From Escherichia coli (GTDB lineage Bacteria; Pseudomonadota; Gammaproteobacteria; Enterobacterales; Enterobacteriaceae), in the NCBI RefSeq assembly GCF_003334405.1, contig NZ_QOWM01000001.1: a stretch of DNA of 64,000 nucleotides; one strand, given 5' to 3'. A model generated the notes under the pieces. That model saw only the letters and a program-made list of their open reading frames with translations, did no database searches and was not told where the DNA came from. The position numbers and the translations under genes are program-made. Shown here in pieces: positions 11,302-14,300 of the stretch; the first letter of the stretch is position 1; each line of letters starts with the position of its first letter.

Positions 11302-14300
11302 ATGCGGATTATCTTTCTACGCAAGGAGTATTTATCTTTACTCCCGTCAATGATTGCATCTCTTTTCTCTGCTAACGGTGTCGCGGCGGTCACTGATTCA
11401 TGCCAGGGATATGATGTCAAAGCGAGTTGTCAGGCCAGCAGGCAAAGCCTTTCAGGCATTACGCAGGACTGGAGTATCGCTGATGGGCAATGGCTGGTTT
11501 TTTCGGATATGACCAATAACGCCAGCGGTGGGGCCGTATTTTTGCAACAAGGAGCGGAATTTTCACTATTACCAGAAAATGAAACTGGAATGACTCTGTT
11601 TGCCAATAACACCGTTACAGGAGAATATAATAACGGCGGGGCCATATTTGCTAAAGAAAACTCAACGCTGAATCTTACTGATGTTATTTTTTCCGGTAAC
11701 GTCGCAGGCGGCTATGGTGGCGCAATCTATTCTTCTGGTACTAACGATACTGGTGCCGTCGATTTACGTGTCACTAACGCCATGTTTCGCAATAACATCG
11801 CTAATGATGGCAAAGGTGGCGCAATTTATACCATTAATAATGACGTTTATTTAAGTGATGTTATTTTTGATAACAACCAGGCATATACATCAACAAGTTA
11901 CAGTGATGGCGATGGCGGGGCAATCGATGTTACCGATAATAATAGCGACAGCAAGCATCCTTCAGGTTATACGATAGTAAATAACACTGCCTTTACAAAT
12001 AACACTGCCGAAGGTTATGGCGGGGCGATATATACCAATAGCGTGACGGCTCCCTATCTTATTGATATTTCTGTTGATGACAGCTACAGCCAGAACGGAG
12101 GCGTGTTAGTCGATGAGAACAATAGCGCAGCAGGCTATGGAGATGGTCCTTCCTCTGCGGCGGGTGGCTTTATGTATCTCGGCTTAAGTGAAGTTACCTT
12201 TGATATTGCCGACGGAAAAACGCTGGTTATTGGCAATACAGAGAATGACGGAGCTGTTGACTCTATTGCTGGTACCGGGTTAATCACCAAAACAGGTTCC
12301 GGCGATCTGGTACTTAATGCAGATAACAATGACTTTACTGGTGAGATGCAGATTGAAAACGGTGAAGTTACCCTGGGCCGCAGCAACTCCCTGATGAATG
12401 TCGGCGATACGCATTGCCAGGACGATCCGCAAGACTGCTACGGTCTGACGATAGGGAGTATTGATCAGTATCAGAATCAGGCTGAGCTAAACGTTGGCTC
12501 GACCCAACAAACTTTTGTGCACGCATTGACGGGCTTTCAGAATGGCACTTTAAATATCGATGCTGGTGGCAACGTTACTGTTAATCAGGGCAGTTTTGCT
12601 GGCATCATCGAAGGTGCTGGTCAGCTCACCATTGCGCAAAACGGCAGCTACGTGCTGGCAGGGGCGCAGTCGATGGCGCTAACCGGCGATATAGTCGTTG
12701 ATGATGGTGCGGTGCTTTCGCTGGAAGGCGACGCGGCAGATCTTACCGCTCTCCAGGACGATCCGCAGTCGATCGTGTTAAACGGCGGTGTGCTCGATCT
12801 CTCTGATTTCTCCACCTGGCAGAGCGGCACATCATACAACGATGGCCTTGAAGTCAGTGGCAGCAGCGGAACGGTTATCGGCAGTCAGGATGTGGTAGAT
12901 CTTGCAGGTGGCGACAATTTGCATATCGGCGGCGACGGGAAAGATGGCGTCTACGTGGTGGTCGATGCGAGCGACGGGCAGGTAAGTCTGGCAAACAATA
13001 ATAGTTATTTGGGCACAACACAAATCGCCTCCGGTACGCTGATGGTGAGCGACAACTCGCAGCTTGGAGATACCCACTATAACCGCCAGGTTATCTTTAC
13101 CGATAAGCAACAAGAAAGCGTGATGGAGATTACCTCCGACGTTGACACGCGTTCAGATGCGGCAGGCCACGGACGTGATATTGAAATGCGCGCCGACGGT
13201 GAAGTGGCAGTTGATGCGGGGGTAGACACGCAGTGGGGCGCACTGATGGCTGACAGCAGCGGGCAGCATCAGGATGAGGGTAGCACATTGACTAAAACGG
13301 GGGCTGGTACACTGGAGCTGACCGCCAGCGGTACAACGCAGTCGGCGGTACGTGTCGAAGAAGGCACCCTGAAAGGTGATGTTGCTGATATCCTTCCTTA
13401 TGCTTCGTCACTGTGGGTTGGTGATGGGGCAACGTTCGTTACTGGCGCGGATCAGGATATTCAGTCAATTGATGCTATTTCCAGCGGCACTATCGACATC
13501 AGCGATGGTACGGTTTTGCGCCTGACCGGGCAGGATACTTCCGTCGCCCTTAATGCCTCACTATTTAACGGCGATGGGACGCTGGTGAATGCCACCGATG
13601 GTGTGACGTTGACAGGTGAGCTTAATACCAACCTTGAAACTGACAGCCTGACTTATCTTTCCAACGTGACGGTTAATGGCAATCTGACCAATACGTCCGG
13701 TGCGGTTAGCCTGCAAAATGGCGTCGCTGGCGATACGCTGACGGTAAACGGTGATTATACCGGCGGCGGTACGCTACTGCTCGATAGCGAATTAAACGGC
13801 GATGACTCGGTAAGCGATCAATTGGTGATGAACGGTAATACTGCTGGCAACACAACTGTGGTGGTTAACTCCATTACAGGGATTGGTGAGCCGACATCGA
13901 CAGGCATTAAAGTGGTTGATTTCGCAGCTGATCCCACGCAGTTTCAAAACAATGCGCAGTTCAGTCTGGCAGGCAGCGGCTACGTCAATATGGGAGCGTA
14001 TGACTACACGCTGGTGGAAGATAACAACGACTGGTATCTGCGATCGCAAGAAGTAACGCCGCCATCGCCACCTGATCCAGACCCGACTCCCGATCCTGAT
14101 CCCACGCCGGATCCTGATCCAACACCCGACCCGGAACCTACGCCTGCTTACCAGCCGGTGTTGAATGCCAAAGTTGGCGGTTATCTCAATAACCTGCGGG
14201 CGGCAAATCAGGCGTTTATGATGGAGCGACGCGATCACGCAGGTGGCGATGGTCAGACGCTGAATTTACGTGTTATCGGCGGAGATTATCATTACACAGC

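Follow-up and report, generated by a model that had tools for sequence, protein, structure and literature searches.

Does an imperfect tandem repeat inside the gene for a surface adhesin reflect a DNA sequence prone to replication slippage, or is its periodicity a property of the encoded peptide? We addressed this question at yfaL/ehaC of Escherichia coli, in a 64,000-nt stretch of contig NZ_QOWM01000001.1 (hereafter, the window), in which a preliminary description had noticed a short in-frame repeat encoding a proline-rich linker that might vary in length between strains.

Gene and domain layout

The product of yfaL/ehaC is an AIDA-I-type (type Va) autotransporter adhesin. The reading frame contains no internal stop codon, and matching genomes (identity up to 100%) carry the RefSeq label 'AIDA-I family autotransporter adhesin YfaL/EhaC', in agreement with the gene assignment made from the sequence. 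The gene is the orthologue of yfaL of E. coli K-12: the MG1655 locus is 99.8% identical to the 401-nt query, and the neighboring genes ubiG and gyrA are likewise shared.

A Pfam scan of YfaL residues 351-1250 recovered the components of a type Va protein, i.e., a passenger with passenger-associated repeats (PATR, PF12951, E = 4.9e-04) and an autochaperone/junction end, where the AC_1 match overlaps a Pertactin match (PF03212, residues 811-914, E = 8.7e-09), followed by the Autotransporter domain of the 12-stranded barrel (Table 1). In the AlphaFold2 model (mean pLDDT 86, pTM 0.82), a helix precedes the barrel and beta-strands follow the helix; its conserved Y..N..AAN motif aligns with that of homologues, and, judging from the family, this helix would plug the barrel pore. 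The linker lies between passenger and barrel, as had been proposed: in one and the same frame, the AC_1 and Pertactin matches end at residues 904 and 914, respectively, and the Autotransporter match starts at residue 989. The nearest solved relative, the AIDA-I structure 4MEE (E = 8.6e-36), aligns to either side of the linker but leaves the linker itself unaligned, in one block at YfaL residues 808-917, where the autochaperone matches 4MEE residues 29-138, and in a second block at residues 957-1244, which begins at the pore-helix region and includes the barrel. The junction comprises about 10 residues in AIDA-I (4MEE 138-149) versus about 40 in YfaL (residues 918-956), which makes the proline repeat an insertion relative to AIDA-I.

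Table 1. Features of yfaL/ehaC and of its linker (positions in the window)
Feature	Position	Strand	Details and source
yfaL/ehaC CDS	11302..15054	+	1250 codons + stop; ORF list, translation, RefSeq annotation
Autochaperone domain, C-terminal passenger end	13681..14013	+	YfaL residues 794-904; Pfam AC_1 PF18883, E = 1.7e-18
12-nt direct repeat CTGATCCCACGC	13928-13939 and 14096-14107	+	Repeat search
Proline-rich linker PPSPP-(DPDPTP)x3-DPEPTP	14059..14145	+	YfaL residues 920-948; sequence, translation
Four 18-nt units	14074-14091, 14092-14109, 14110-14127, 14128-14145	+	Tandem Repeats Finder, repeat search, unit listing
Longest exact internal direct repeat GATCCTGATCC, 11 nt	14092-14102 and 14110-14120	+	Unit comparison
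Predicted alpha-helix	14167..14211	+	Residues 956-970; AlphaFold2 model helix 156-170, pLDDT ~91-93
Outer-membrane beta-barrel translocator domain	14266..14985	+	Residues 989-1228; Pfam Autotransporter PF03797, E = 1.7e-34

Composition and predicted structure of the linker

Every second residue of the linker is a proline, and 16 of the 31 prolines of the whole protein fall within these 31 residues. In the AlphaFold2 model, residues 921-950 lack secondary structure and have pLDDT values of 53-59, compared to 84-93 in the flanks; this low confidence indicates that no fold is confidently predicted, and a polyproline-II conformation does not follow from it. An X-Pro-rich stretch, variable in sequence and length, occupies the same position in all 15 distant homologues inspected (29-35% identity), between a W-Y-L-(R/T)-S motif and the (Y)RPE..Y..N..AAN helix. 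It should be noted that Pfam also reports a Trypan_PARP match on the linker (E = 0.65), which we regard as compositional likeness only.

Periodicity of the repeat at the DNA and protein levels

The sequence confirms that the proline-rich run exists, although the run had been placed a few bases off, at 14062-14150, with the last position reaching into the next codons (Ala-Tyr); the DNA quoted for it corresponds to 14077-14145, which covers just the final 23 of the 29 amino acids given. Tandem Repeats Finder detected a repeat at 14074-14144 with a period of 18, 3.9 copies and 75% matches (score 65), along with an alternative 36-nt reading (score 86), and a separate repeat search found four in-register copies at 18-nt spacing. 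Thus, in place of the P-D-P-T/E tetrapeptide originally suggested, the true unit is the hexapeptide D-P-D-P-T-P (18 nt), itself built of X-Pro dipeptides (6 nt).

The lag-18 identity of the array is 0.74, whereas the mean for the gene, calculated over all 72-nt windows, is 0.29 and the maximum elsewhere in the gene is 0.48; the periodicity of the linker is far beyond chance. For a null expectation, the same peptide was encoded with resampled synonymous codons, which gave a lag-18 identity of 0.78 +/- 0.04. Among the copies, the identity at third codon positions was 0.22, compared to 0.35 expected. The synonymous positions of the copies are therefore no more alike than by chance, suggesting that the periodicity is kept at the protein level, without recent duplication of the DNA.

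Length alleles among genomes

Linker lengths were surveyed in 5,420 complete E. coli genomes by systematic samples of the database matches and by counts within identity bands, so that the frequencies below are estimates and not a per-genome tally of alleles. A linker of 31 aa was found in ~69% of 100 systematically sampled matches; the 25-aa form accounts for ~22% (about 1,200 records by identity band), the 33-aa form for ~7% of the sampled matches (at least 162 records) and the 23-aa form for ~3% (169 records). Linkers of 29 and 37 aa are rare forms in complete genomes. Those of 19 and 35 aa come from a protein database search, in which most YfaL entries were truncated or partial and the standard 1250-aa protein was missing; this search was used for additional variants and distant homologues, not for the census.

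The expected length variation among alleles is thus present, and it is confined to the linker: in an alignment of 19 haplotypes over 13700-14500, all gap columns fall within 14050-14149. All indels in complete genomes are multiples of 6 nt, as are the length differences of the database forms, so the natural alleles differ in repeat number or length while the frame is kept, as in pertactin. One genome (strain VTB97022v) carries a 168-nt in-frame deletion whose end points are the two copies of CTGATCCCACGC. As a gauge of how common this deletion allele is, coverage of the 401-nt query falls below 80% in a single record of the 5,420.

Two kinds of unusual sequences were set aside. A database protein reading 'MGSGSGVGSGSG...' (P0015) was considered as an inversion of the linker; its DNA is a fold-back at the extreme end of a contig, pivoting on a 13-nt inverted repeat (14062-14074/14240-14252), and was treated as an assembly artefact. 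In Shigella sonnei, contigs break within the linker, and one reading considered was a perfect array expanded beyond the reach of short reads. The S. sonnei allele is absent from the complete E. coli genomes searched (best identity 97.3%). These contigs are also staggered at their 5' ends, at codon ~302, a site that lacks any repeat, which makes IS insertions a simpler reading than an expanded array.

Origin of the length changes

Three rare variants are clean products of slippage, two of them on the haplotype of the window itself. An exact duplication of one 18-nt unit, in strain CFS3246, for which the 11-nt repeat GATCCTGATCC served as the substrate, shows 0/491 and 1/501 mismatches to the window in its flanks; a loss of 6 nt shows 0/491 and 0/501; and a loss of one 18-nt unit lies on a slightly diverged haplotype. 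Such recent derivatives amount to ~10 of about 2,000 genomes with a window-like haplotype. Slippage at the linker is therefore real but rare, and it is not a phase-variation switch, given that the similarity of the copies does not exceed what the peptide requires and that the longest exact repeat is only 11 nt. For the same reasons, the earlier statement that the repeat is prone to slippage names a process that does occur and overstates its rate.

The common length classes have a different history. In two alleles, the upstream flank is identical to that of the window, whereas the downstream flank is 6-7% diverged. The length class tracks the downstream haplotype cluster, and one such cluster contains three lengths together (23, 31 and 33 aa). 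We conclude that the frequent length classes represent old alleles that are associated with the barrel haplotype and have been reshuffled through recombination.

A proposed stalk between passenger and barrel

The explanation that we consider probable is that the linker is an acidic X-Pro spacer, or stalk, with a periodicity maintained by the peptide, rare slippage, and alleles spread by recombination. Under this model, an acidic, alternating X-Pro spacer of ~30 residues would join the folded end of the passenger (the beta-helix autochaperone cap) to the pore helix, and would form an extended, fairly stiff, polyproline-II-like stalk that resists collapse and keeps the body of the adhesin clear of the LPS core and of the mouth of the barrel. 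With a rise of ~3.1 A per residue, a linker of 31 residues could span up to ~95 A, with each X-Pro dipeptide contributing ~6 A. Length changes would arise by rare replication slippage or misalignment between short imperfect repeats, in the 6-nt register of X-Pro, and we propose that the lack of a fixed fold in the spacer allows them to be tolerated. New lengths would then persist as alleles traveling with the barrel haplotype, and homologous recombination with breakpoints inside the linker or close to it would exchange them. We infer the stalk function from composition, position and analogy; among the papers searched, no experiment on the YfaL linker was found. The YfaL surface-display anchor in use (residues 786-1250) includes the linker, which is thus tolerated in practical use (PMC7138890).

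Comparison with known systems

The architecture of YfaL is the same as that of TibA, the self-associating autotransporter of enterotoxigenic E. coli, both being AIDA-I-type proteins of this species: in both, a proline-rich stretch lies between the autochaperone/junction region and the membrane-embedded domain (TibA as described in PMC3835316), which in YfaL comprises the helix and the barrel. The TibA domain has ~50 residues versus ~30 in the YfaL linker, and the YfaL linker is a regular acidic D/E/T-Pro hexapeptide repeat.

Bordetella pertactin is a further beta-helical autotransporter with in-frame proline-rich repeats, the R1 and R2 regions, and YfaL has a Pertactin-domain match just upstream of the linker. 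The repeat sequences of R1 and R2 are GGxxP and PQP, and differ from the D-P-D-P-T-P of YfaL. Both regions loop out of the beta-helix of a passenger that is cleaved, whereas the YfaL linker tethers the passenger to the pore helix; moreover, immune selection has been documented in pertactin, but not in YfaL.

The spacer of TonB consists of alternating dipeptides of a charged residue and proline (Glu-Pro or Lys-Pro), is extended and stiff, and bridges the functional ends of an envelope protein. It spans the periplasm and has an acidic and a basic half, whereas the YfaL linker is presumably extracellular and purely acidic or neutral, and the two are not homologous.

Alternative explanations

If the linker were an exposed epitope under diversifying selection driven by immunity or phages, its variation would be adaptive, as in the R1 and R2 regions of Bordetella pertactin, in which the number of proline-rich repeats varies among alleles (PMC8931430). 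Nucleotide diversity in the linker (0.109) is twice that of the flanks (0.052), and this excess, along with the coexistence of three lengths in one downstream cluster, would be compatible with diversifying selection too. Moreover, amino-acid substitutions accompany the indels (VNPTPPP, DPIP, PAPDP and PAPVP variants), in one allele substitutions are clustered in the linker while both flanks are nearly identical to those of the window, and yfaL was reported among positively selected E. coli genes (PMC9110714). Conversely, the 5,420 genomes contain few length classes, with one class prevailing; these classes follow the haplotype and are not scattered; and neutral substitutions and indels are expected to build up in low-complexity spacers. 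On balance, diversifying selection appears unlikely.

Another possibility is that linker length is a tuned 'height' setting, between 23 and 37 residues in X-Pro steps, matched to the thickness of the LPS core, O-antigen or capsule of the lineage such that the passenger is exposed or masked, with the linker also serving as a preferred recombination joint between passenger and barrel. We give this proposal little weight.

A role of the DNA itself is highly improbable. The Asp-Pro codons GAT-CCN create five GATC (Dam) sites within 46 nt (14074-14119), which might constitute a SeqA/Dam patch or a methylation-sensitive element, and this is the densest 60-nt cluster of the 64-kb window. The next densest places, however, reach four sites per 60 nt, the sites are a direct by-product of the GAT-CCN codon pairs, and the cluster lies deep in the coding region, some 2.8 kb past the start codon. 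At several positions, GAT is replaced by GAC in other alleles that are otherwise unchanged; we rejected the cluster as a functional element because of this lack of conservation.

The interpretation of the repeat as a contingency locus, in which frequent slippage toggles yfaL (phase variation) or quickly resets linker length within a clone, is already largely refuted, and we hold it to be exceedingly improbable. A tandem repeat within a surface adhesin gene is what such a locus would look like, and a few database proteins shift frame inside the linker (P0035, P0036 and P0039); these come from draft or read-archive assemblies, however, and may represent sequencing errors. Contingency loci are characterized by perfect short repeats, slippage that shifts the frame or alters a promoter, and frequent variation within clones, whereas here the copies are imperfect, the 18-nt unit and its 6-nt sub-unit ensure that slippage preserves the frame, as do all the indels observed in complete genomes, and the near-identical haplotypes sampled are uniform in length: all 40 sampled matches with at least 95% identity to the window query share its length, and only ~10 of the 5,420 records have an identity in the range expected for window-like haplotypes with a small indel.

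Finally, the repeat is not an artefact of a wrong frame or of a non-coding low-complexity stretch, a reading already refuted: although the minus strand also has a 148-codon ORF across the region (13792-14238), the linker is part of an unbroken frame of 1250 codons with significant Pfam domains on either side, matching genomes annotate the gene as yfaL, and natural indels all keep its frame.

Implications

A yfaL spacer with strain-dependent length is an ordinary feature of an already familiar type, and it is of little importance for basic biology, given that YfaL is already annotated as an autotransporter in K-12 and that related autotransporters are known to have proline-rich spacers whose repeat number depends on the allele. 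The practical consequences are more specific. The natural alleles span 23-37 residues (19-37 when truncated database entries are included), showing that the spacer tolerates at least these lengths, and they provide ready-made variants for display engineering. Since the linker alone carries indels in this gene region, it could serve as a simple length marker for typing yfaL alleles; it is also the spot where codon alignments of yfaL and scans for selection may err. The synonymous-site test shows clearly that a periodic DNA repeat can persist wholly through selection on the peptide, which tempers the usual view of tandem repeats as hot spots of slippage.

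Repeat unit and position of the linker

Window positions 13900-14320 were inspected base by base. The yfaL open reading frame (11302-15054, + strand) comprises 1250 codons without an internal stop, and positions 14056-14148 in this frame read T-PPSPP-DPDPTP-DPDPTP-DPDPTP-DPEPTP-A. Tandem Repeats Finder reported 3.9 copies of period 18 with 75% matches at 14074-14144, and an independent repeat search returned four copies at 18-nt spacing; therefore, the repeat unit is the hexapeptide D-P-D-P-T-P, composed of X-Pro dipeptides. The preliminary description had given the unit as (P-D-P-T/E), which is corrected here to six amino acids (18 nt) with a 6-nt sub-register; its span, 14062-14150, is accurate within a few bases of the run in the table, and of the 29 residues it listed, the DNA string it quoted (14077-14145) codes for no more than 23. 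The identity at lag 18 was 0.74 in the array versus a gene-wide mean of 0.29, the highest value elsewhere in the gene being 0.48, and 16 of the 31 prolines of the whole protein lie within the 31-residue linker. The periodicity is due neither to chance nor to a frame artefact, and the uninterrupted 1250-codon frame rules out a repeat produced by translation in the wrong register.

Queries of 801 nt and 401 nt around the repeat each matched 5,420 of the 5,426 complete E. coli genomes, with a top identity of 100% (99.8% for K-12 MG1655, 401-nt query), and every listed match was annotated as "AIDA-I family autotransporter adhesin YfaL/EhaC", except for one IS1-truncated copy. The closest solved structure is the AIDA-I beta-domain (4MEE, E = 8.6e-36), which aligned to YfaL 808-917 and, as a separate block, to 957-1244; the segment connecting the blocks is about 40 residues long in YfaL and about 10 in AIDA-I. 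In an AlphaFold2 model of residues 801-1250 (mean pLDDT 86, pTM 0.82), beta-strands extend to residue 919, residues 921-950 lack secondary structure (pLDDT 53-59), and a helix at 956-970 beyond the linker is followed by the barrel strands. Taken together, the Pfam matches, the 4MEE blocks and the model indicate that the repeat encodes a tether joining the folded passenger end to the predicted pore helix, in agreement with the location between passenger and beta-barrel proposed originally.

Features of the YfaL linker and the adjoining domains (Pfam query offset, 350 residues)
Feature	Position	Strand	Source
Proline-rich run	14059-14145	+	Translation in yfaL frame
AC_1 (autochaperone)	YfaL residues 794-904		Pfam
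Pertactin-domain match	YfaL residues 811-914		Pfam
Autotransporter beta-domain	YfaL residues 989-1228		Pfam
Trypan_PARP match on linker, compositional only	YfaL residues 920-948		Pfam, E = 0.65

An antisense open reading frame of 148 codons with a GTG start (13792-14238, - strand) spans the linker and its flanks and reads the repeat as a Gly-Ser-rich low-complexity sequence; nothing in the list of open reading frames of the window indicates that it is a gene.

Peptide repeat and DNA repeat

As a null model, synonymous codons were resampled for the 24-residue array according to yfaL's own codon usage. The observed lag-18 identity was 0.74, compared to 0.78 +/- 0.04 expected, and the third-position identity was 0.22, compared to 0.35 expected. 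The likeness of the four copies at silent sites is not above chance and, if anything, is below it; therefore, the periodicity is kept at the protein level and the repeat copies are old. The peptide repeat accounts wholly for the DNA repeat. The longest exact repeat within the array, GATCCTGATCC (11 nt, at 14092 and 14110), is a weak slippage substrate.

The GAT-CCN Asp-Pro codon pairs create five GATC (Dam) sites in 46 nt (14074-14119), the densest 60-nt GATC cluster of the window, the next densest having four sites; the window contains 326 GATC in total, whereas its base composition predicts 249. In other alleles several of the linker sites read GAC, and thus the sites are not conserved.

Length classes and their origin

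Linker length, defined as the interval from DWYLRSQx to AYQP, differs between strains, as had been anticipated, with classes of 23, 25, 31 and 33 aa instead of a uniform length. In two systematic samples spread over the ranked matches (100 rows in total; lengths taken from match spans and confirmed by 24 fetched loci), 69 rows had the length of the window, 20 were shorter by 18 nt, seven longer by 6 nt, three shorter by 24 nt, and one carried a 168-nt deletion. Allele-specific queries gave consistent counts: about 1,200 records at >=95% identity for the 25-aa allele, every sampled row there being of that length, 169 records at >=99% for the 23-aa allele, and 162 at >=99% for the 33-aa allele, with further ones in the next identity band. 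The resulting fractions of genomes, which rest on row samples and identity bands rather than a per-genome tally, are ~69% for 31 aa, ~22% for 25 aa, ~7% for 33 aa and ~3% for 23 aa; linkers of 19 and 35 aa also occur among database proteins (P0004, P0006, P0002). When 19 distinct haplotypes were aligned over 13700-14500, gap columns were confined to 14050-14149, all indels were multiples of 6 nt, and nucleotide diversity was 0.109 in the linker versus 0.052 in the flanks.

The common length classes are old alleles, distinguished by substitutions in addition to indels (e.g., VNPTPPP starts, DPIP or PAPDPTP ends). They go with the haplotype downstream, on the barrel side, where every 25-aa allele belongs to a single cluster; the upstream flank is mosaic among yfaL alleles. 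Two fetched loci, L001 and L009, equal the window upstream and are 6-7% diverged downstream, which places a recombination breakpoint in or adjoining the linker; in a third, L014, a substitution patch affects only the linker's 3' half, the flanks being nearly those of the window. Most length variation is inherited with old alleles and recombined between them.

The preliminary description had regarded the array as prone to slippage. The two products that misalignment of the 11-nt exact repeat would yield were constructed and used as queries. The exact +18-nt duplication was matched at 100.0% over 279 nt by strain CFS3246 and by another record of equal length; this allele has a 37-aa linker, and 0/491 and 1/501 positions of its flanks differ from the window. 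The -6-nt allele (one GATCCT lost, 29 aa) occurs in at least five porcine ETEC genomes, UMNF18 among them, with flank differences of 0/491 and 0/501. In strain UTME-3 the first 18-nt unit is missing, which makes a second, independent 25-aa allele. Recent events of the slippage type thus exist and are clean (+18, -6 and -18 nt), but they are rare: about 10 records versus about 2,000 window-like records (>=99% identity, 401-nt query). Three features exclude a contingency locus for phase variation: a unit length divisible by three, imperfect copies, and natural indels that are all in frame.

Strain VTB97022v (L006, NZ_CP178670.1) carries the 168-nt in-frame deletion, which runs between two 12-nt copies of CTGATCCCACGC in direct orientation (13928 and 14096); none of the other 5,420 records covers less than 80% of the 401-nt query. 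The deletion takes the last 56 residues ahead of the remaining linker, among them the conserved autochaperone end (…YDYTLVEDNNDWYLRS), and half of the linker is lost; the annotation nevertheless shows an intact gene.

Broken copies and assembly oddities

A perfect 13-nt inverted repeat, CCATCGCCACCTG / CAGGTGGCGATGG (14062-14074 and 14240-14252), flanks the linker and pore helix. Draft contig L022 (JBBUSC010000016.1) opens with a fold-back that pivots exactly on this repeat and yields a spurious protein starting MGSGSGVGSGSG; the fold-back is probably an assembly artefact.

In many Shigella sonnei drafts (L023-L028; P0011, P0023-P0075), where the linker starts with PPNPNPTP, a contig ends within the linker (…GGATCCTGA) and a second contig picks up at the linker's 3' end (CGGCCCCTACGCC…); these 1.9-kb contigs also have an abrupt start, at yfaL codon ~302. 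The contig ends carry no IS bases. IS insertions are the likely cause of the breaks; an expanded repeat array is a less likely one. The S. sonnei linker allele is absent from the complete E. coli genomes searched.

In some strains yfaL is inactivated: IS1A truncates it upstream of the linker region in strain C6 (L005, NZ_CP195945.1), and in strain 2020N21-246 (L019, NZ_CM125675.1) it contains an internal stop and carries a pseudogene annotation. Five database proteins (P0035, P0036, P0039, P0105, P0113) switch frame in or just before the linker, ending …PLTSRC, or have the entire linker in a different frame (…IQTRLQILIPRRIPTQPPTRNLRLPTSRC). Most of them derive from draft or read-archive assemblies, and the frame changes may reflect either genuine frameshift pseudogenes or misread bases in the C-rich run.

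Function and relatives

Each of the 15 distant homologues examined, which share 29-35% identity and come from Citrobacter, Stenotrophomonas, Paraburkholderia and others, has an X-Pro-dipeptide-rich stretch at the same place, flanked by a W-Y-L-(R/T)-S autochaperone end and a (Y)RPE..Y..N..AAN helix, its length and sequence being highly variable. Thus, the family as a whole has a spacer at this position, and the exact sequence of the spacer is not conserved. Proline-rich sequences tend toward extended polyproline-II-like rods (PMC8931430); at 3.1 A per residue, 31 residues would span up to ~95 A, and a stiff acidic stalk of this kind would keep the passenger away from the barrel mouth and the LPS core. 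We infer such a stalk as the best reading of the linker's function.

The literature search returned no paper treating YfaL together with a proline-rich stretch; the YfaL surface-display anchor used in biotechnology (residues 786-1250) includes the linker (PMC7138890). The architecture is the same in the E. coli AIDA-type protein TibA, where "an additional proline-rich domain" (627-677) lies between the junction region and the membrane domain (PMC3835316). Pertactin has two proline-rich repeat regions, one disordered in the crystal, whose copy number changes slowly and differs among alleles (PMC8931430). The polymorphism resembles that of YfaL in kind, but lies in passenger loops in pertactin and in the tether in YfaL. 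The original observation is confirmed, and its interpretation is supported once three points are corrected: the unit, the peptide origin of the repeat and the rarity of slippage. Both the yfaL gene and linkers of this kind are already known.
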